Sequence record: NC_007637.1
Length of the DNA: 45,251 bases
Direction: 5' to 3' (one strand)
Source of the DNA: Escherichia phage K1E
This document shows, piece after piece, positions 3,156 through 19,709 of the stretch. The stretch's first letter is position 1. Every line of letters begins with the position of its first letter. Both the position numbers and the translations under genes were made by a program. The notes under the pieces were generated by a model. It was given only the letters and a program-made list of their open reading frames with translations. It made no database searches and was not told the origin of the DNA.

Positions 3156-4040
3156 ATGACTACTGAAAACACCCTTCTGTCTGTTCGTGAAGCTGCAACC
3201 GCTGAAATCAAGCAGCACTTAGACAATATCGGCACTTCTTACATCAAAGTTGGCGCTTGTCTGAATGAATTACGCGGTGATTTCGAAGGTCAAAAAGACT
3301 TTTTAGCTTATGTAGAATCAGAGTTCGGCATCAAGAAGGCACAATGCTACAAGCTGATGAGTGTAGCCCGTGTCTTTGAAGGAGACGAACGCTTTAAAGG
3401 TGTGGCTATGCGTGTAATGCTGGCGCTTGTTCCTTTCGCTGATGAAAATATAATCATGGAGAAGGCCGCAGAACTCGCCGCAGATGGCAAGCTGGACACT
3501 AACGCCGTAAACGCCCTGATTGAGACTAAGAAAGAGATAAAGGCCGAAACGGTACAATCTAAGGCTGAGGCAGTAAAACCGCAGGAGAACGCGACTGAGG
3601 CCGCAGAATCACAGGAAATGCAAGCGCCGCAGGTAGTGCCACCCGCGAGCGAGCAGGAGGCCGACGAATCAGCACCATGGGAAGAGGAAAGCAAGCCGGA
3701 AGCGCCAAAGGCAGCGCCGCTGGATAACACGGCTAATACCGAAAACGCCGCTATGGCTAGCCTCTTAGCACAAATTAAGGCACTGACTGAGCAATTACAG
3801 GCAGCTAATGACCGCATCGCCTCCTTAAGTAGCGCACGCGAAAGCAAGAAGGCAGCCGCACCTATGCTGCCGCAATTCAAATCTTCCTGCTTCTATGCTC
3901 GCTTAGGGTTAAGCGCTGAGGAGGCAACGAAGAAAACAGCAGTTAACAAGGCGCGCCGCGAACTGGTTAAGCTAGGCTACGGTGAAGGACATGAAGCATG
4001 GCCCTTAATCTCTGAGGCAGTAGAAGAGTTGACTAAGTAA
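3156..4040 (+). CDS. Hypothetical early protein (294 aa) with acidic Pro/Glu/Ala-rich linker
   Basis: Track ORF starts at GTG 3147; first ATG is 3156 with AAGGTGA upstream. GC-rich low-complexity middle (about 3540..3720); sits immediately upstream of the RNA polymerase gene. Confidence 0.55.
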   Translation: MTTENTLLSVREAATAEIKQHLDNIGTSYIKVGACLNELRGDFEGQKDFLAYVESEFGIKKAQCYKLMSVARVFEGDERFKGVAMRVMLALVPFADENIIMEKAAELAADGKLDTNAVNALIETKKEIKAETVQSKAEAVKPQENATEAAESQEMQAPQVVPPASEQEADESAPWEEESKPEAPKAAPLDNTANTENAAMASLLAQIKALTEQLQAANDRIASLSSARESKKAAAPMLPQFKSSCFYARLGLSAEEATKKTAVNKARRELVKLGYGEGHEAWPLISEAVEELTK

Positions 4041-4103
4041 CCTTATCGGTGGCATCTCCTTAGGTGTCACCTATTAAGGTTTCTTTCACTAGGAGTAAAC
4101 AAG

Positions 4104-6731
4104 ATGCAAGACCTACACGCTATTCAACTTCAACTTGAAGAAGAAATGTTTAACGGCGGCATCCGTCGCTTTGAAGCGGACCAACAACGCCAGATTGCAT
4201 CCGGTAATGAATCAGACACGGCATGGAATCGCCGCTTATTGTCCGAACTAATCGCACCTATGGCGGAAGGTATTCAGGCTTACAAGGAAGAATACGAAGG
4301 CAAGAGAGGTCGTGCACCACGTGCATTAGCTTTCATTAACTGCGTAGGAAACGAAGTGGCAGCATATATCACCATGAAAATCGTTATGGATATGCTGAAT
4401 ACAGACGTTACCTTACAAGCTATCGCTATGAATGTAGCAGACCGCATCGAGGACCAAGTACGTTTTAGCAAGCTGGAAGGTCACGCAGCTAAGTACTTTG
4501 AGAAAGTGAAGAAGTCGCTTAAGGCTAGCAAGACTAAATCTTATCGTCATGCGCACAACGTAGCGGTAGTAGCTGAGAAATCTGTTGCTGACCGTGACGC
4601 GGATTTCTCCCGTTGGGAGGCATGGCCTAAAGACACCTTGCTGCAAATCGGTATGACCTTGCTCGAAATATTGGAGAATAGTGTATTCTTCAATGGTCAA
4701 CCTGTCTTCCTTCGTACCTTGCGCACTAACGGCGGAAAGCATGGTGTTTACTATTTACAGACCAGTGAACATGTTGGCGAGTGGATAACTGCATTTAAGG
4801 AACATGTAGCGCAGCTCAGCCCTGCCTATGCACCTTGCGTTATACCTCCCCGCCCTTGGGTATCACCTTTTAACGGTGGGTTTCATACTGAGAAAGTAGC
4901 AAGCCGTATTCGTCTGGTAAAAGGCAATCGTGAGCACGTCCGCAAGCTGACCAAAAAGCAAATGCCAGCCGTTTATAAGGCTGTTAACGCTTTGCAGGCA
5001 ACTAAGTGGCAGGTTAATAAAGAGGTTTTACAGGTTGTGGAGGACGTTATACGTCTAGACCTCGGCTATGGTGTACCTTCCTTTAAACCACTCATCGACC
5101 GTGAGAACAAGCCAGCTAATCCGGTGCCGTTAGAGTTCCAGCACCTGCGAGGCCGTGAACTGAAAGAAATGTTAACACCGGAACAATGGCAAGCCTTCAT
5201 CAACTGGAAAGGTGAATGCACCAAGCTGTATACCGCTGAGACTAAGCGCGGCAGCAAATCGGCGGCGACCGTCCGCATGGTAGGGCAGGCCCGTAAATAC
5301 AGCCAATTTGACGCAATATACTTCGTGTATGCTCTGGACAGCCGCAGCCGCGTCTACGCGCAATCTAGCACGCTCTCTCCGCAATCAAACGACTTAGGCA
5401 AGGCATTGCTCCGTTTTACCGAAGGGCAGCGTCTTGATAGCGCTGAGGCGCTTAAGTGGTTTTTGGTGAACGGGGCTAATAACTGGGGTTGGGATAAGAA
5501 AACTTTTGACGTGCGCACCGCTAACGTGCTGGATAGTGAATTTCAAGACATGTGCCGCGACATTGCAGCGGATCCGCTGACCTTCACTCAATGGGTAAAT
5601 GCCGACTCCCCTTACGGCTTCCTTGCATGGTGCTTTGAATATGCGCGTTATCTGGATGCACTGGATGAAGGCACGCAAGACCAATTCATGACGCACCTCC
5701 CAGTCCATCAAGATGGTAGTTGTTCTGGTATCCAGCACTACAGTGCTATGCTACGCGATGCAGTAGGTGCGAAAGCAGTAAACCTTAAGCCCTCTGACTC
5801 TCCTCAAGATATTTATGGTGCCGTTGCGCAGGTAGTAATTCAGAAGAATTATGCATACATGAATGCAGAGGATGCGGAAACCTTCACTTCTGGCAGCGTG
5901 ACTTTAACAGGTGCGGAACTGCGTAGTATGGCTAGTGCGTGGGATATGATAGGAATCACTCGCGGCCTGACCAAAAAGCCCGTAATGACACTACCTTATG
6001 GCAGCACACGTCTAACCTGCCGTGAGTCAGTGATTGATTATATCGTTGATTTAGAAGAAAAAGAGGCCCAACGGGCTATTGCGGAAGGGCGTACCGCCAA
6101 TCCTGTACACCCTTTTGATAATGACCGTAAAGACAGCCTGACACCTAGCGCAGCTTATAACTATATGACAGCTTTAATCTGGCCTTCTATCTCGGAAGTG
6201 GTTAAAGCCCCTATAGTGGCAATGAAAATGATTCGTCAGCTTGCACGTTTCGCAGCTAAAAGAAACGAAGGCTTAGAATATCCCTTACCAACTGGCTTCA
6301 TCTTGCAACAAAAGATAATGGCTACCGATATGCTCCGCGTATCCACTTGCTTGATGGGTGAAATCAAGATGAGTCTCCAGATTGAAACAGATGTAGTTGA
6401 TGAAACGGCAATGATGGGTGCGGCTGCTCCTAACTTCGTCCATGGTCACGATGCTAGCCACCTGATTCTGACTGTATGTGACCTAGTGGATAAAGGTATT
6501 ACATCCGTTGCAGTCATCCATGATTCTTTCGGTACTCATGCAGGACGTACCGCAGACCTGCGGGATAGCTTAAGGGAAGAAATGGTTAAGATGTATCAAA
6601 ACCATAATGCCCTGCAAAACCTGCTAGATGTGCACGAAGAGCGTTGGTTAGTAGACACCGGAATCCAAGTACCAGAGCAAGGGGAGTTTGACCTTAACGA
6701 AATCTTAGTTTCAGACTATTGTTTCGCATAA
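4104..6731 (+). CDS. Single-subunit DNA-dependent RNA polymerase (T7/SP6 type, 875 aa)
   Basis: AGGAG RBS; motifs [19 protein letters not shown] and C-terminal ...DYCFA parallel T7 RNAP ([19 protein letters not shown], ...FAFA). Confidence 0.95.
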
Positions 6732-10904: not shown

Positions 10905-11109
10905 AGTCAGTAAGGTTTGCTCTTGCGGTAAAGGTTATCGCAGTCGTATTGATGGTAAGTGTGGGCATTGCAGGTCTAAGAAAGAGGCTGCTTTGTTTGA
11001 TAAGTACCACAATGAATTAGCATATAACTATCCTCATCTAACACCTAATTCTTTATTAGGACTTGGTTATAGGGTTAAATACTTTGGAGCAATCTATGAA
11101 ATCAATTGA
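10891..11109 (+). CDS. Hypothetical Cys-rich (zinc-ribbon-like) protein (72 aa)
   Basis: Track ORF trimmed to ATG 10891 (GAGG 6 nt upstream); CSCGKGYRSRIDGKCGHC. Confidence 0.45.
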   Translation: MKAIKVSKVCSCGKGYRSRIDGKCGHCRSKKEAALFDKYHNELAYNYPHLTPNSLLGLGYRVKYFGAIYEIN

Positions 11110-13642
11110 TTGGAAGAAGGAAGCAGAAGGCCGCATCTTAGTGATGGATTCTGAGGCTAAAGGCCTGCTGGATGCTATCCGATATGGCCACCGCGAAGAT
11201 GTGCACATCATTTGCTGCATGGATTTGCTTACTACAGAGGAGTTCCTCTTCTTTGACCCATACGAGATGCGTGACCCTGAAGCAAGAGAACGCCTAAAAG
11301 AATGGGAAGGCCATCAAGATGGAACATTGGTTGACGGTGTTAACTTCCTTAAACACTGCGAAGCCATCGTCTCACAGAACTTCCTAGGGTACGACGGCCT
11401 TCTATTTGAGAAAGCATTCCCTGATATCTGGAAAGGCTTTAACTATACCGAGAGACGCGGCAAGGGCAGACTCCGCGCTGACCTGTGTCCGGTACGCGTC
11501 ATGGATACGCTGGTCATGAGTCGCCTGTTAAACCCCGATAGACGCCTCCCTCCGCAAGCATACGCCAAAGGCATGGGTAACGTAGCCCCTCACTCAATTG
11601 AGGCGCACGGCATTCGTATAGGCCGTTATAAGCCGGAGAACGAGGATTGGTCTAAACTAACTGACCACATGGTACATCGTGTACGCGAGGACGTGGCGAT
11701 AGGCCGTGACCTATTCCTCTGGCTATTTAACGGAGAATGGACGGAGCACAAACGCCGTGGCGTGAATAAACGCACTGGCCTAGGTATTGAGACAGCCTTC
11801 CACATGGAGTCCATTGTGGCGCTGGAGATGAGCCGTCAGGCCGAGCGTGGATTCCGTCTGGATATAGATAAAGCATTAGCACGATGCGAGGAATTGGACG
11901 CTAAGATTGATGAGACAGTCGCAGCGTTCCGTCCGCACATGCCTATGCGTATCAAGTCTAAACCTTTTAAACCGGAAGAAAAGAATGAAGTATGCCAACG
12001 CGCAAATGAGTATGGAGCTAGCAACAATATACCTACTGTCCTTGACCCCTCTCACTTTCTTCACGCAGAGAGACGAGGAGATCGCAAGACAGTATGGAGT
12101 GTCACTACTAAGTCTGGTGATTGGTCGGCTAGCGTCAAGAAAGACTTTCCTCACCTTAGAGGAAACCGTAATGACACGCCAAGCATCAAGTGGATTGGCG
12201 CTTACTCGCCTGTTACTTTCGAAGAGATTCCCTTGGGTAACAGGGATACAGTTAAGCAAGTGCTCTATGATTATGGATGGAAAGGTGTTGAATTTAACGA
12301 TACCGAGCAAGCGCATCTCGATGAGCATGGCGTATTACCCAAGCCTTGGAGTGGGAAGATAAATGAAAAGTCCCTTACTTTATGGCAAGAGAGAGCCGCA
12401 CGTGAAGGTAAAACAGTCCCTGATTGGTGCTTGGGTATCGCTGCATGGTACATACTCGTATCCCGTCGTGGTCAGATCCTCAACCGTGGTGACGTTGAAG
12501 CCTTCGACCAGAAGGGGGTGTGGCCTTCGCAAGCTGGTATACGAAAGTGTCGCGGCCTTGTACCTGTAGCATTTAACAAGGAGTTAGGAATCAATGCGCA
12601 GCAATACTACGAAAGGTACGGATGCTGGCCTACGTCAGACAAGGATGACGGAGAATGGCGTGTGCCAGCTATTGCTATTAGTATTGGAACTTCTACGTTC
12701 CGTATGCGTCATCGTAACGTGGTTAATATTCCTGCCCGTGGTTTGTATCCTTTACGTGATTTATTCATAGCCGGTAAAGGTAAGCTAATCCTTGGTTGTG
12801 ATGGTGCTGGTCTTGAACTACGTGTACTGTCTCACTTCATGAATGACCCTGAATATCAAGATATTGTACTGCATGGTGACATTCACACCCATAATCAAAT
12901 GAAGGCTGGTCTTCCTAAGCGTGACATGGCGAAGACATTTATATATGCCTTCCTATATGGGTCTGGTATAGCTAACCTTGCAGCAGTATGTGGTGTTACT
13001 GAGGAAGAAATGGAGGAAGTTGTGGCAAGATTTGAGGTTGAACTACCATCTCTTGCACGTCTTCGTGAGAATGTTATCGCACAAGGTAACAAGTTTGGCT
13101 ACCTACAAGCACCTGATGGTCATTGGGGTCGCATCCGTATGTCTGGTGGTGAACTTAAAGAGCACACTATGCTTAACGTACTACTCCAGATGACTGGTTC
13201 TCTGTGTATGAAATACGCATTGGTCAGAGCGTTTGCAGTGATGCGCAAGGAAGGTGTGGCCTTAGATAGCATGGGAAACCCTTGCGGTATAGCTAACGTG
13301 CACGATGAAATCCAGATGGAAGTCCCTGAAGATGAGGTCTTGTATCTCAACTACGACTTGCCTTTCACCTTAGAAGGGTTCGAAACAGAGAAGGCTGCTG
13401 TGAAAGCAGTGTTCGATGCAGAGGAGAAACGTGTTCATGTGGATTCTGAAGGACGTATGTGGTCTGCTGCAAATCTCGTTAGCGTTGATGCTGATGCTGG
13501 TGTACTTCATTGCCAGCGTCGCTATCACCGTGCAGGGCATATCATTGCCGACGCAATGACTTGGGCGGGTCAGTATCTGAAGATGCGTTGTCCGATGGCA
13601 GGTGAGTATAAGATTGGTGCAAGTTGGAAGGAAACACACTGA
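11096..13642 (+). CDS. DNA polymerase, family A (848 aa)
   Basis: Track ORF trimmed to ATG 11096 (GGAG upstream). Exonuclease motif VMDSEAKG, motif A CDGAGLELRVL, motif B RDMAKTFIYAFLYG, motif C VHDEIQ. Confidence 0.9.
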   Translation: MKSIDWKKEAEGRILVMDSEAKGLLDAIRYGHREDVHIICCMDLLTTEEFLFFDPYEMRDPEARERLKEWEGHQDGTLVDGVNFLKHCEAIVSQNFLGYDGLLFEKAFPDIWKGFNYTERRGKGRLRADLCPVRVMDTLVMSRLLNPDRRLPPQAYAKGMGNVAPHSIEAHGIRIGRYKPENEDWSKLTDHMVHRVREDVAIGRDLFLWLFNGEWTEHKRRGVNKRTGLGIETAFHMESIVALEMSRQAERGFRLDIDKALARCEELDAKIDETVAAFRPHMPMRIKSKPFKPEEKNEVCQRANEYGASNNIPTVLDPSHFLHAERRGDRKTVWSVTTKSGDWSASVKKDFPHLRGNRNDTPSIKWIGAYSPVTFEEIPLGNRDTVKQVLYDYGWKGVEFNDTEQAHLDEHGVLPKPWSGKINEKSLTLWQERAAREGKTVPDWCLGIAAWYILVSRRGQILNRGDVEAFDQKGVWPSQAGIRKCRGLVPVAFNKELGINAQQYYERYGCWPTSDKDDGEWRVPAIAISIGTSTFRMRHRNVVNIPARGLYPLRDLFIAGKGKLILGCDGAGLELRVLSHFMNDPEYQDIVLHGDIHTHNQMKAGLPKRDMAKTFIYAFLYGSGIANLAAVCGVTEEEMEEVVARFEVELPSLARLRENVIAQGNKFGYLQAPDGHWGRIRMSGGELKEHTMLNVLLQMTGSLCMKYALVRAFAVMRKEGVALDSMGNPCGIANVHDEIQMEVPEDEVLYLNYDLPFTLEGFETEKAAVKAVFDAEEKRVHVDSEGRMWSAANLVSVDADAGVLHCQRRYHRAGHIIADAMTWAGQYLKMRCPMAGEYKIGASWKETH

Positions 13643-14864: not shown

Positions 14865-15671
14865 ATGGCACGTGGTGATTTCGATTTTGGTGCTTCCGTA
14901 TCTAAAGCTGAAGGTAAAGTCTTTAAGAATCCAGAAGTAGGTGATCATGAAGCAGTAATCTCTGGCATCATTCATGTTGGTTCCTTCCAAGACATCTTTA
15001 AGAAAGGTAATACCACTGAAGTTAAGAAGCCAGCAAACTTTGTTCTGGTTAAGATTGTCCTGATGGGTGACGATGACAAGAACGAAGATGGTTCTCGCAT
15101 GGAACAATGGATGGCTGTGCCTCTGAAGTCTGGTGATAAGGCAACACTGACTAAGTTCCTGAATGCAGTTGACCCTAAAGAGTTGCTGGGTGGCTTCGAT
15201 GATTTTATCGGTGAATGTCTGACTGCAACTATGGTTGGCTCTGGCGACAAGAATGATGATGGTACTTTCAAGTATGTTAACTGGAAAGGCTTTGGCGGTA
15301 TGCCTGATAAGTTGAAGAAGCTTGTACTGGCTCAGGTAGAAGAGGAAGGTCTGTCTATGACAGGTCATATCACCTTCGACAAGCTGACCAAAGAAATCAT
15401 TGATGACATCCCAGCTAACTTGGTACGTCAATACTTCCTGAACGAGACACCTCGTGGTAAGAACCTGTCTGTTGCTGGCTCTCACGTAGAAGCTATTATC
15501 AAAGCTGCTCGTGAAGAAGACCCTGAATGGAAGAAGGCTAAGAAGAAAGACGAGGAAGATGCTACCCCAGCTAATCGTAAATCTCTGGATACTGGTGAGT
15601 CTGTTCCGCAGGAAGTACCTGAAGCAGAAGATACGCCTGCACCGGAGATGGATGAGGACGCGGAATATTAA
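14865..15671 (+). CDS. Hypothetical replication-associated protein with acidic C-terminal tail (268 aa); candidate ssDNA-binding protein
   Basis: AGGAGA RBS; C-terminus ...PEMDEDAEY (acidic, aromatic last residue) resembles the DNA-polymerase-binding tails of T7 gp2.5 and gp4. N-terminal DFDFGASVS motif is shared with the exonuclease. Confidence 0.4.
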   Translation: MARGDFDFGASVSKAEGKVFKNPEVGDHEAVISGIIHVGSFQDIFKKGNTTEVKKPANFVLVKIVLMGDDDKNEDGSRMEQWMAVPLKSGDKATLTKFLNAVDPKELLGGFDDFIGECLTATMVGSGDKNDDGTFKYVNWKGFGGMPDKLKKLVLAQVEEEGLSMTGHITFDKLTKEIIDDIPANLVRQYFLNETPRGKNLSVAGSHVEAIIKAAREEDPEWKKAKKKDEEDATPANRKSLDTGESVPQEVPEAEDTPAPEMDEDAEY

Positions 15672-16004: not shown

Positions 16005-16376
16005 ATGTTCAAGATTGAAACTATCGTAAACCGTGTTGTTAAAGGTGCTGCTCTGGTATCCGTTGAGTCTTTCATTATCGTCGATGAAGCTGATCAACTG
16101 GTAGCTGGTACTAAGGCTTACGATACCCGTGAAGAAGCTCAGGCTAAGATTGACAGCATGGGTAACTTCGCTGCTGGTCTGGAGTTTGCTCGTGCTTGCT
16201 TCCCTGAGCAGGCTGACAAAGCCCAGATCGGTAAGGCTAACATCGTAGCTGAATATCTGGATTGGATTGCTGCTGGTAAACCAGTGAAAGAAGTTAAAGC
16301 TGCTGAAGAAGCTGAAGCTCCGGCAGTAGAAGTGTCTGCACCGGAAGCTCCGGTTAGCGAAGAGGAAGAGTTTTGA
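16005..16376 (+). CDS. Abundant small protein with acidic C-terminal tail ending in Phe (123 aa); candidate ssDNA-binding or polymerase accessory protein
   Basis: Strong RBS AAAGGAGA; codon usage typical of a highly expressed gene; C-terminus ...APVSEEEEF. Confidence 0.4.
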   Translation: MFKIETIVNRVVKGAALVSVESFIIVDEADQLVAGTKAYDTREEAQAKIDSMGNFAAGLEFARACFPEQADKAQIGKANIVAEYLDWIAAGKPVKEVKAAEEAEAPAVEVSAPEAPVSEEEEF

Positions 16377-16493: not shown

Positions 16494-16766
16494 ATGCCGA
16501 CTATTGAATCTCGAATTGAACTGGACATTAGCTACAATGCAATCACCAGACAGTATATTGGGGTTGCCTATGATTACAAAACTGGTGAGAAGCTAGTGGA
16601 GGTGAGACAATGGGATGACTATTGGTTAAGACAGAACCTCCATGATGCGGTGTCCTCCTTCTTGAAGGAGTGGCCTACATGCGACCAAACTTCGACTTCG
16701 GAGCTACAGTATCGGAAGACAATAATCTCATCCTGTGGCCAACTGAAGGTAATCGAATCGCTTTAA
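16494..16766 (+). CDS. Hypothetical protein (90 aa as read); 3' end overlaps the exonuclease gene by 88 nt
   Basis: ATG with GGAGA upstream; the true C-terminus is uncertain. Confidence 0.3.
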   Translation: MPTIESRIELDISYNAITRQYIGVAYDYKTGEKLVEVRQWDDYWLRQNLHDAVSSFLKEWPTCDQTSTSELQYRKTIISSCGQLKVIESL

Positions 16767-17704
16767 TAGATGCTGATATGTTACCCTACATCGTAGGTTA
16801 TACAATCAGTGACATGACTTATTTACGAGCCACAACTCGTGTTAAGTCAGGACAAGTCCCATCAATCAAAGATACACCTGAGTGTAAGCAAGCATGTGAC
16901 CGTGTGAACTCCTTGCTTAACTCTTGGGTGTATGCAGCAGAGTGTGATGCAGCTAAGCTATTCATGACGAAATCAGAAGCTAACTTCCGTGTCCGCCTAG
17001 CATTCACAAAGCCTTATAAGGGTCAACGTAAGACCGAGAAGCCTCCGTTCTTCTATGAATTGCGAGAGCATCTCTTAGAGGTTCACGGTGCAATCTTGGC
17101 AGATGGTGAGGAAGCTGATGACCTCATGAGCATCGCACAATGGGATAGCCACCGCCGCTTCCAGCAAGATACAGGTAACGAGTTCGCTATCGGTAGTCCA
17201 GAGCATAAAGCATTCTCTGATACTTGCATCGTTTCCTTAGATAAGGATTTGATGATTGTTCCCGGTTGGCATCTACAGCCGGGTCAAGAGAAGAAGTGGG
17301 TAGAGCCTATGGGCTGGCTTGAGCTACGCCGTAAGGTTAATGGGCAAGTCAAAGATCTAAAAGGTGCTGGCCTCATGTTCCACTATGCACAGATGATTAT
17401 CGGTGATGATATTGATAACTATGCTGGCATACCAGGTCGTGGTGCTAAATATGCCTATGATCTTCTCAAAGATTGTAAGACAGAGAAAGAGTTGTACATG
17501 GCAGTGCTGGGTGCTTACAAGGCTAAGTTCGGGCATGGACAAGTTAAAATTAAGAATTACCGAGGTGGTTATCGTATCGGCAAAGCCTTTGACCTAATGC
17601 TTGAGTGTGGTCGCTTAGCTCACATGGCAAGATTCAAGGGTGATATATGGCGAGCCGATAAGAACCCAATCTTGTGGGGAGATGAAGGATGGCTACAAAG
17701 TTAA
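16679..17704 (+). CDS. 5'-3' exonuclease (FEN/T7 gp6-like, 341 aa)
   Basis: Track ORF starts at GTG 16670; first ATG is 16679 with AGGAG upstream; acidic active-site stretch ALIDADMLPYIVGY; lies in the replication module. Confidence 0.7.
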   Translation: MRPNFDFGATVSEDNNLILWPTEGNRIALIDADMLPYIVGYTISDMTYLRATTRVKSGQVPSIKDTPECKQACDRVNSLLNSWVYAAECDAAKLFMTKSEANFRVRLAFTKPYKGQRKTEKPPFFYELREHLLEVHGAILADGEEADDLMSIAQWDSHRRFQQDTGNEFAIGSPEHKAFSDTCIVSLDKDLMIVPGWHLQPGQEKKWVEPMGWLELRRKVNGQVKDLKGAGLMFHYAQMIIGDDIDNYAGIPGRGAKYAYDLLKDCKTEKELYMAVLGAYKAKFGHGQVKIKNYRGGYRIGKAFDLMLECGRLAHMARFKGDIWRADKNPILWGDEGWLQS

Positions 17705-18102
17705 AAGCATCTGAAGTTGCTGCTTATAAGAAAGAGTTGCTAGAGAAGCAGGGCTGGAAATGTCCTATTTGTGGAGCACCTCTTAAAGCAGTGGCCGAGA
17801 TTAACCGAGTACTAGACCATTGCCATCGCAGAGGTTACTGTAGAGCGGTACTCTGTCGTGGGTGCAATGGCGGTATCGGGAAGATAGAAAACCTAGTAAA
17901 GACTTATTGTAAGGCTGGGGATAATGAGTATTTCATTATCAAGACATTGCGAAACATTGCAGATTATCTAGACTTACATAGTAAGCCTCAGACTGATAAG
18001 ATTTATCATAAACATCAAACGGAGGCAGAGAAGCGCGAGGCTAAGAACCGTAAGGCACGCCTTGCTTATGCAAGAAAGAAGAAGGAGGTTAAAGTTGGGT
18101 AA
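17689..18102 (+). CDS. Endonuclease VII-like junction-resolving nuclease (137 aa)
   Basis: CPICGAPL...LDHCHRRGYCRAVLCRGCNGGIG matches the T4 endonuclease VII zinc/His-Me finger pattern. Confidence 0.7.
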   Translation: MATKLKASEVAAYKKELLEKQGWKCPICGAPLKAVAEINRVLDHCHRRGYCRAVLCRGCNGGIGKIENLVKTYCKAGDNEYFIIKTLRNIADYLDLHSKPQTDKIYHKHQTEAEKREAKNRKARLAYARKKKEVKVG

Positions 18103-19102
18103 GCTTCGCAGCTTGTACAAAGACTCCGAGGTACTTGATGCAATCGAGCAAGCTACCGACGAGAAAGGTAATGTTAATTACAATGAGATGGCACGGATAT
18201 TATCGTGCCACCCTGTGGGTAAGAAGATTACCCGCCAGTTGGCTAGATACTGGCATGGTCAATTCAAGAAGACCAAGAAGAATGGTGATTACTACCAGAC
18301 CCTTCTGCAAGAGGATAAGCGTATCAAGGAAGAGCGTAAGCTCAGGACTCCTGACCGCTACGAGGATTTGGCTATTGTACCATTGCCTGACTCGCCTCAT
18401 CGAAGTGTACTGGTAATCCCTGATACCCATGCACCGTATGAGCACCCAGATACCTTAGAGTTCCTTGCAGCAGTGGCAGCACGTTACCGTCCTGATACGG
18501 TGGTTCATCTTGGAGATGAGGCAGACAAACATGCCTTATCGTTCCACGATTCGGACCCAAATCTGGACAGTGCTGGCATGGAGTTAGAGAAGGCCCGTGT
18601 CTTTATGCATAAATTACACAAGATGTTTCCTGTGATGCGCCTGTGTCATTCTAATCACGGCTCTATGCACTTCCGTAAGGCAAGCGCCAAAGGTATTCCT
18701 GTACAATATCTGCGTACCTATCGTGAAGTCTTCTTTCCGCATGGGGGTGGCGACCAGTGGGATTGGCAGCATACACACGTTCTTGAGTTGCCGAATGGTG
18801 AACAGGTTGCATTTAAGCATCAACCCGCAGGCTCAGTCTTAGCAGATGCAGCGCATGAGCGCATGAACTTAGTGTGCGGTCACTTGCATGGTAAGATGTC
18901 GGTGGAGTATGCACGTAATACACATGAACAGTATTGGGCTGTGCAGGGCGGCTGTTTGATTGATGAGTCATCTCGTGCATTTGCCTATGGTCGTGAGTCC
19001 AAATACAAGCCAGCATTAGGTTGTGTGGTTATTCTGGAGGGTGTGCCGCACATTGTCCCGATGCAGACCAATAGTGACAATCGCTGGATTGGTAAGATTT
19101 AG
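18095..19102 (+). CDS. Calcineurin-like metallophosphoesterase (about 335 aa); start uncertain
   Basis: Motifs VIPDTHAPYEH, HLGDEADKH and CHSNHGS. Track ORF starts at TTG 18062; proposed start is TTG 18095 (AAGGAGG 8 nt upstream); the first in-frame ATG is at 18188. Confidence 0.55.
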   Translation: MGKLRSLYKDSEVLDAIEQATDEKGNVNYNEMARILSCHPVGKKITRQLARYWHGQFKKTKKNGDYYQTLLQEDKRIKEERKLRTPDRYEDLAIVPLPDSPHRSVLVIPDTHAPYEHPDTLEFLAAVAARYRPDTVVHLGDEADKHALSFHDSDPNLDSAGMELEKARVFMHKLHKMFPVMRLCHSNHGSMHFRKASAKGIPVQYLRTYREVFFPHGGGDQWDWQHTHVLELPNGEQVAFKHQPAGSVLADAAHERMNLVCGHLHGKMSVEYARNTHEQYWAVQGGCLIDESSRAFAYGRESKYKPALGCVVILEGVPHIVPMQTNSDNRWIGKI

Positions 19103-19119
19103 TTGACACTATAGAACAA
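19097..19119 (+). promoter_or_regulatory. SP6-type phage promoter (+1 G at 19114)
   Basis: ATTTAGTTGACACTATAGAACAA; overlaps the upstream stop codon. Confidence 0.75.
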
Positions 19120-19169
19120 AGGGTAGGTATTAGCTTACCCTTGATTGTATAGTGAATGGAGGAATTAAT

Positions 19170-19709
19170 ATGTCACAATATGTATGTGAGAAATGCGGCA
19201 ATCGATATGATAACTGCACCTGTGATTATAATAAAGGTAAAAGGATTAAATCAGGTGATTATGTTATACGACGTGCAGGCTGCCGCGACCCAGAGTGGGG
19301 CAGGGTGTGTAAACTATTAGGCAAGAAATCAGATGCAACATTCAAAGTTATAAAGGATGAGTCTGTCGGCAGCGCCATTATACTTGAAGGTATCGAAAAG
19401 CGAGAATGGTATGCACCTTATTTCGAGAGAGTGGCAACCCCACCAGTTGTACCTGAGTCTAATAACTCAAACGATAATATGGTTACGCAACCTAAGCACT
19501 ACGAGTTCTTCGATGGGGTAGAGGCAATCACTATCATTGCTCGTAGTATGACCGAGAAGCAATTTGCTGGATATTGCATGGGTAATGCTTTGAAGTATCG
19601 TCTGCGTGCAGGGAAGAAATTCAACACGGAAGAAGACCTGAAGAAAGCAGACTACTACAAAGAGCTATTCCAGAAGCATCGTCACGAATGTATTGATGAG
19701 GATATTTAA
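19170..19709 (+). CDS. Hypothetical protein with N-terminal Cys cluster (179 aa)
   Basis: Track ORF starts at GTG 19152; first ATG is 19170 with GGAGG upstream; CEKCGNRYDNCTCDY; conserved-looking C-terminal region PKHYEF...KYRLRAGKK. Confidence 0.5.
   Translation: MSQYVCEKCGNRYDNCTCDYNKGKRIKSGDYVIRRAGCRDPEWGRVCKLLGKKSDATFKVIKDESVGSAIILEGIEKREWYAPYFERVATPPVVPESNNSNDNMVTQPKHYEFFDGVEAITIIARSMTEKQFAGYCMGNALKYRLRAGKKFNTEEDLKKADYYKELFQKHRHECIDEDI

Follow-up and report, generated by a model that had tools for sequence, protein, structure and literature searches.

Here we have analysed a metallophosphoesterase (MPE) gene of Escherichia phage K1E (sequence record NC_007637.1) within the whole 45,251-nt stretch of DNA, hereafter the window. 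The gene occupies positions 18095-19102 of the plus strand, the strand of all its elements described below, and comprises 335 codons and a TAG stop at 19100-19102, an extent delimited by the open reading frame (ORF), the PHROG_221 profile, homologue length and an AlphaFold2 (AF2) model. Its start falls within the last nucleotides of an endonuclease VII gene (endoVII; 17689-18102, plus strand, 137 amino acids; Pfam PF02945 E 6.7e-13, PHROG_423 E 1.9e-46), whose TAA stop codon lies at 18100-18102; the two genes overlap by 8 nt, bearing out the adjacency read from the bare sequence in the first-pass annotation of this DNA. At the other end, an SP6-type phage promoter (19099-19116, plus strand; TTAGTTGACACTATAGAA) overlaps the MPE stop codon, and MPE is therefore the final gene of its own transcription unit. 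This promoter is one of nine matches to the SP6-type consensus in the window, against 0.03 expected by chance.

Translation is predicted to begin at a TTG codon (18095-18097), which follows, after a 6-nt spacer, the Shine-Dalgarno sequence AAGGAGG (18082-18088), located within the endoVII coding sequence and kept in relatives. The first-pass annotation had proposed exactly this pairing, with ATG 18188 as the first in-frame ATG and one devoid of a ribosome-binding site; the absence of such a site is correct, but an earlier in-frame ATG at 18068-18070 had been overlooked. The window carries 22 copies of AGGAGG on the plus strand and three on the minus strand; a start codon lies 3-10 nt downstream of 16 of the 22, and the copy at 18083 is the sole one preceding a TTG that opens a long ORF. 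Given this strand bias and the usual position of the motif before start codons, the site at 18083 is no chance match. Furthermore, the Shine-Dalgarno and initiation region is predicted to be unstructured (z-score +0.32). The ORF itself opens at 18062. ATG 18068 precedes the TTG by 27 nt and lacks a good Shine-Dalgarno sequence at usable spacing, the only candidate being an AAGG 12 nt upstream; the internal Met32 codon (18188-18190) has none either. A 7-bp hairpin (UGGCACG...CGUGCCA, 18189-18210) was seen at this internal ATG and considered as a regulatory element; it is only marginally stable (z-score -1.84 versus shuffled sequence) and not conserved in SP6, and was for these reasons rejected.

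Comparison with relatives settles the choice between these codons, pointing to TTG 18095 as the predicted start of translation. Each of the 27 IMG/VR relatives has TTG, GTG or ATG as the homologous codon, with a conserved GGAGG before it. In SP6-like genomes the 50 codons of open frame that precede the TTG include not a single start codon, whatever its type, and TAC takes the place of ATG 18068, which is therefore not conserved; in two other lineages (L063 and L066) a TAA stands immediately 5' of a GTG start. Codons 4-31, which the SP6 record treats as intergenic, differ from their counterparts in SP6-type and Proteus-phage relatives by 8-14 synonymous and 0-2 non-synonymous changes; judged from this pattern, they are evidently under purifying selection, and the proposal of a non-ATG start in the first-pass annotation has thereby held up against a start at ATG 18188. 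Homologues retrieved from databases at identities between 87% and 48% have 329-348 residues, bar one 229-residue record, and their alignments begin at residue 12 of the 346-residue ORF, which is the TTG position; homologues at 44-48% identity still have about 335 residues and the N-terminus M-x-K-[LI]-R-x-x-[FY]. The form M-x(1-4)-K-[LI]-R-x-x-[FY] is shared by 45 distinct lineages, in which the SNHGS motif follows the start by 172-188 codons. In these lineages, where starts were called by a nearest-start rule of which two of the four TTG calls (L100 and L110) are artefacts, about 35 of the 45 begin with ATG. TTG and GTG starts are found mainly in the SP6 clade, whose MPE and endoVII genes overlap; a few other lineages have them as well, among them KpV74 and Gaspode, in which a TTG is annotated. 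Non-ATG initiation is not a feature of the whole family.

It is very unlikely that the main start is instead ATG 18068 (344 amino acids) or ATG 18188 (304 amino acids). ATG is the preferred initiator and each of these codons is the start in a public record, but neither has a Shine-Dalgarno sequence; the upstream one is lost in SP6-like genomes and an equivalent is ruled out in other relatives by the upstream stop, and the internal one would remove 31 conserved codons under apparent purifying selection. As a point against a single start, ATG 18068 may serve as an extra, minor start in this particular genome. Public records indeed use three starts: the equivalent of ATG 18068 in the Mt1B1_P10 GenBank annotation, the TTG in the K1-5 and mutPK1A2 RefSeq records, and the equivalent of ATG 18188 in the SP6 RefSeq annotation. 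The gp23 model of SP6 (NC_004831.2, 16519-17433) is 31 codons short, and the MPE model of Mt1B1_P10 (MT496971.1) begins nine codons too early.

Names and gene models vary likewise. AY288927.2 calls the product a 'metalloprotease', and other public names include 'phosphatase 2a-like' and 'hypothetical'. In a GenBank record labelled 'Escherichia phage K1E' (KY435490.1), the gene is split into a 104-residue piece (UniProt A0A2I4Q1Z7), which corresponds to the N-terminal domain (TMt 0.95 to the AF2 model), and a 237-residue piece (A0A2I4Q1Y4), which corresponds to the catalytic domain; the split is a frameshift or sequencing error that falls by chance at the domain boundary. Four Klebsiella-phage relatives (L024 and L026-L028, three of them present a second time as L059, L061 and L062) are mosaic: their catalytic domain is close to that of the window, the upstream gene is not endoVII, the start is ATG, and the first ~30 codons are strongly diverged, with 17-18 of 28 codons non-synonymous.

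The AF2 model of the 335-residue protein (pLDDT 87.8, pTM 0.84) has two domains. Residues 1-82 (18095-18340) form a three-helix, helix-turn-helix (HTH)-like N-terminal domain with helices at residues 10-20, 29-37 and 47-57 and a further helix at 71-80; it is similar to DNA-binding HTH domains and presumably binds DNA. Residues 103-335 (18401-19099) form the catalytic calcineurin-like phosphoesterase domain, with both the four-layer alpha/beta sandwich and the five motifs (DxH, GD, (G)NH, H, GHxH) of that superfamily. Motif I is D110-T-H112 (18422-18430), which supplies metal ligands; motif II, G140-D141-E-A-D144-K-H146 (18512-18532), combines the bridging aspartate with family-specific residues; motif III, S186-N187-H188 (18650-18658), is a family variant of GNH[D/E]; motif IV is H242 (18818-18820); and motif V is G262-H263-L-H265 (18878-18889), which aligns with GHTH of the mycobacteriophage protein Bxb1 gp47. 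The first-pass annotation had called these motifs clear, and in an alignment of 51 homologues all five are invariant, including the metal ligands D110, H112, D141, N187, H242, H263 and H265 and the catalytic H188; within motif II, G140, D141, E142, D144 and H146 do not vary. The further family-specific residues P114, H117, W222 and W224 are invariant too, as are E142, D144 and H146. With ligands and catalytic histidine intact, the protein is, as far as sequence shows, not an inactive homologue, and we predict it to be a catalytically competent binuclear-metal phosphodiesterase. The family is divergent, the match to Pfam PF00149 (Metallophos) being marginal at 22.1 bits against a gathering cutoff of 21.5.

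A further and independent sign of catalytic importance comes from intein-like inserts of ~300 amino acids that sit exactly within catalytic motifs I-III of four homologues (P0121, P0155, P0157 and P0266), at the junctions PDLH|C... in motif I, GDE|C... in motif II (P0121 and P0155) and GNH|C... in motif III (P0266). Inteins target essential active sites. Each insert has a cysteine first, a TxxH block, and a terminal asparagine followed by cysteine, and two of the four align from the junction cysteine to the NCBIfam model intein_Nterm with sub-threshold scores; a search of the PDB with one of the inserts gave no match. The inserts thus appear to show the pattern expected of inteins, with the sub-threshold intein_Nterm matches as the only profile support.

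The subfamily, which the first-pass annotation had left to a profile search, is PHROG_221 'metallo-phosphoesterase' (E 1.5e-105, profile positions 13-358 of 367). Bxb1 gp47 matches the same profile (E 4.5e-116, positions 110-363), and hhalign of the 51-sequence alignment against gp47 gives a probability of 84% (E 7e-6, 190 columns). Furthermore, a broader family hidden Markov model (HMM), built from the window's catalytic domain and 79 stand-alone homologues, assigns 40.7 bits to gp47, as against 8.0 bits for the lambda phosphatase control. The tie to gp47, a characterised member of PHROG_221, is direct and stronger than the tie to other MPEs; by these profiles we place the protein as the SP6-clade member of PHROG_221, in the same family as gp47. 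Public phage records with a homologue number 642 and belong for the most part to Autographiviridae of 40-47 kb. A library-wide profile search returned 3108 cluster representatives, many of which consist of a ~235-residue catalytic domain only, with others carrying different N-terminal extensions; the N-termini of other family members are of different, weak HTH type. Cluster look-ups for the stand-alone catalytic-domain homologues returned no names, PDB sequence searches with the single protein and with the 51-sequence profile found no relative, and the literature yielded no functional study of the SP6/K1-5/KP34-type protein. The only NCBIfam match of the protein, to the ligase-associated phosphoesterase PdeM (TIGR04123), was rejected, scoring 18.8 bits against a cutoff of 150 and aligning in the motif I-II region alone.

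Among close relatives, SP6 gp23, K1-5 gp22 and other orthologues of the SP6/K1-5 clade are 77-99% identical to the window protein; the 'metallo-phosphoesterase' of KP34-like phages and Phimunavirus is ~43-50% identical, and Molineuxvirinae and Drulisvirus also carry an MPE. None of these differs in kind. The characterised relatives are more distant. Bxb1 gp47 is an integrase directionality factor that is required for phage replication (PMC11795197). A10ZJ24 gp48, aligned with the Bxb1 MPE by its own authors, is an early-expressed phosphodiesterase and double-stranded DNA nuclease that degrades host DNA, is needed for the phage to replicate its DNA in M. tuberculosis, and is inactivated by the substitutions D10G, D41V and H175D (PMC12287305). 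D110 of the window protein aligns with D10 of gp47; D10 and D41 of gp48 correspond to D110 and D141, the former by numbering, and H175 to H263 or H265. The likeness to gp47 extends beyond PHROG_221 membership, as the two proteins can be aligned over the whole catalytic domain, share DP1 and Mre11 as top structural neighbours, and are encoded among polymerase, primase, endoVII, helicase and exonuclease genes. The mycobacteriophage MPEs differ in being only ~23% identical and in consisting of the catalytic domain alone (~255 amino acids), without the HTH-like N-domain; motif I of gp47 reads DTQ, as opposed to DTH. Savinov et al. in 2012 are said to have had L5 gp54, too, in the mycobacteriophage cluster-A MPE group. 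The directionality-factor role of gp47 has no counterpart shown in the window phage, whose close relatives are Autographiviridae; in a lytic phage of that family it would be unexpected. The examined regions of four relatives have no annotated integrase, the window itself not having been searched for one. The RefSeq entry for Bxb1 attaches the label 'recombination directionality factor' to gp46 instead of gp47.

Archaeal PolD DP1 (PDB 5IHE) and Mre11/SbcD resemble the protein more remotely, at 12-15% identity (13% for 5ihe_A). The OB fold and DP2-binding region of DP1 are absent, as is the capping domain that lies C-terminal to the MPE core of Mre11/SbcD, the sole extra element of the window protein being its three-helix N-domain; no Rad50/SbcC partner was seen among the genes annotated for this module in four close relatives, and the module ORFs scanned in the window are primase-helicase, polymerase, exonuclease and ligase. 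The window protein is a member of neither family.

The genomic setting is that of a DNA-metabolism module. The window is a Vectrevirus genome (SP6/K1E/K1-5-like) with 97% identity to Mt1B1_P10 and ACG-C91; positions 17600-19400 are 88-97% identical to the Vectrevirus phages Mt1B1_P10, ACG-C91, K1E, K1-5 and mutPK1A2 and ~80% identical to SP6. Genes for primase-helicase, family-A DNA polymerase, an SSB-like (single-stranded DNA-binding) protein, several small ORFs and a 5'-3' exonuclease (16670-17704, neighbour of the endoVII gene) are followed by endoVII, MPE, the phage promoter, a gp1.7-type nucleotide kinase and an ATP-dependent DNA ligase, and the MPE gene is part of this Vectrevirus module. 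An endoVII homologue stands beside MPE in 72 of 85 related loci, nearly always within ~1 kb upstream (match starts 365-1026 nt apart), and is mostly preceded by the 5'-3' exonuclease. This order of exonuclease, endoVII and MPE is preserved in lineages whose proteins are only 25-46% identical; indeed, 38 of the 50 loci with an MPE below 52% identity keep endoVII, there itself only 30-46% identical. SP6- and KP34-type lineages mostly have MPE just downstream of endoVII, as does Phimunavirus, while in Drulisvirus KpV74 it lies directly downstream of the DNA polymerase gene.

Several further observations concern these neighbours. In one 44.4-kb relative (L067, IMGVR_UViG_2595698666_000001), a single in-frame ORF at ~3776-4822 joins the N-terminal ~75 residues of endoVII to MPE from residue 62; it looks like a deletion of the C-terminal half of endoVII and of the HTH-like domain of MPE, which may have arisen in nature or through faulty assembly. 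Within the window, a 123-residue ORF (16005-16376) ends in EEEEF and the 268-residue SSB-like ORF (14865-15671) in DEDAEY, both without a Pfam match. T7 gp2.5 and gp4 dock onto DNA polymerase by acidic C-terminal tails that end in an aromatic residue.

We propose, by analogy with the characterised family members, that the K1E protein is a Mn2+/Mg2+-dependent DNA phosphodiesterase (nuclease) that supports phage replication and is translated from TTG 18095, a reading we regard as probable. The AAGGAGG in the 3' end of endoVII would drive initiation at the TTG, and through the 8-nt overlap MPE translation is probably coupled to endoVII termination. The HTH-like N-domain would bind DNA and the C-terminal MPE core would cleave phosphodiester bonds, in the middle (DNA-metabolism) phase of infection, with MPE acting alongside the 5'-3' exonuclease and endoVII encoded next to it; it may serve in host-DNA breakdown and/or in the processing of replication and recombination intermediates. 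Beyond the observed gene structure, start, conservation, fold, intact active site, family and synteny, we infer that the substrate is DNA, that the N-domain binds DNA and what the enzyme does in infection. Of the three activities entertained in the first-pass annotation, namely nuclease, phosphatase and anti-defence enzyme, the evidence favours the first, among it the profile tie to gp47, the nuclease activity of gp48, the HTH-like N-domain, the preserved gene order and the lack of a T7 endonuclease I homologue in the window.

Several points weigh against this proposal. Phosphodiesterase or nuclease activity and the replication requirement are known in PHROG_221 from mycobacteriophage members only (PMC12287305, PMC11795197), and the link to gp47 is one of low identity and is profile-based. 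The exonuclease activity of gp47 was itself reported to be weak, and its authors could not exclude contamination (PMC11795197). Furthermore, the MPE fold is silent on substrate, the generic phosphodiesterases YfcE and MJ0936 scoring structurally nearly as high as DP1. Finally, gene order is broadly the same throughout the Autographiviridae, so that its conservation here says little about whether the genes work together.

A bolder version of the proposal, which we advance tentatively and think doubtful, is that the overlapping endoVII and MPE genes form a two-nuclease cassette of the non-T7 Autographiviridae in which MPE degrades the host chromosome. T7 endonuclease I is the host-DNA-degrading endonuclease of T7, and no homologue of it was found in the window; were the cassette real, MPE would replace it. 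It would also be a general anti-defence factor that silences host defence-gene expression, as reported for A10ZJ24 gp48, and the TTG or GTG start and translational coupling of the SP6 clade would limit the level of a toxic nuclease.

It is unlikely that the protein is instead a phosphodiesterase of small molecules, either as an anti-defence enzyme acting on cyclic di- or oligonucleotides or cCMP/cUMP, or in nucleotide salvage feeding the adjacent nucleotide kinase. Degradation of signalling nucleotides is possible but has no specific support. PADLOC gave no match, which says little about anti-defence enzymes because its library contains defence-system proteins. An HTH-like N-domain would be unexpected in such an enzyme, and the substrate of the characterised relatives is DNA. 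As for salvage, the kinase is split from MPE by the phage promoter and accompanies it in just one of the 50 loci below 52% identity (versus 38 for endoVII), with no synteny there.

The analogy with PolD DP1 raises another option, namely a proofreading or end-trimming 3'-5' exonuclease accessory to the phage DNA polymerase, as proposed for gp47. We consider this quite improbable here. The N-terminal part of the family-A polymerase carries, by direct reading, the Exo I-like string VMDSEAKGL and the Exo II-like string QNFLGYD, making an intrinsic proofreader likely and a dedicated proofreading role for MPE less so; the N-terminal ~540 residues of this polymerase (window 11063-13642) matched nothing in Pfam at E values as permissive as 10, and phmmer did not align them to the exonuclease domain of T7 gp5. 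The OB-fold and DP2-binding domains that DP1 possesses are missing, and a published virtual pulldown found no partner for gp47 (PMC11795197). A Ser/Thr/Tyr protein phosphatase of the lambda-PP (NinI) type that reprograms host proteins is highly improbable: such enzymes share the calcineurin-like superfamily fold and are likewise phage-encoded, and Vibrio and Aeromonas phage homologues are named 'phosphatase 2a-like' in their source records, but the PPP signatures GDxHG, GDxVDRG and GNHE are absent, the window protein having PDTHA, GDEADKH and SNHG in their place, and the family HMMs give lambda PP 4.7-8.0 bits.

Returning to the proposed DNA nuclease, its gene is unremarkable, is conserved widely among SP6/K1E-like phages and reveals no new kind of system; the gene, its name and its TTG start are already in some public records, and what is new is the resolved gene model, the domain architecture and a specific functional hypothesis. 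The practical value lies in annotation, as records that disagree on three starts and several names can be reconciled by a comparison that favours the TTG. This connects the family of gp47 and gp48 with a gene that many therapeutic Klebsiella and E. coli K1 phages carry, and offers the testable hypothesis that these phages encode an HTH-tethered DNA nuclease that would act in replication or in the breakdown of host DNA.

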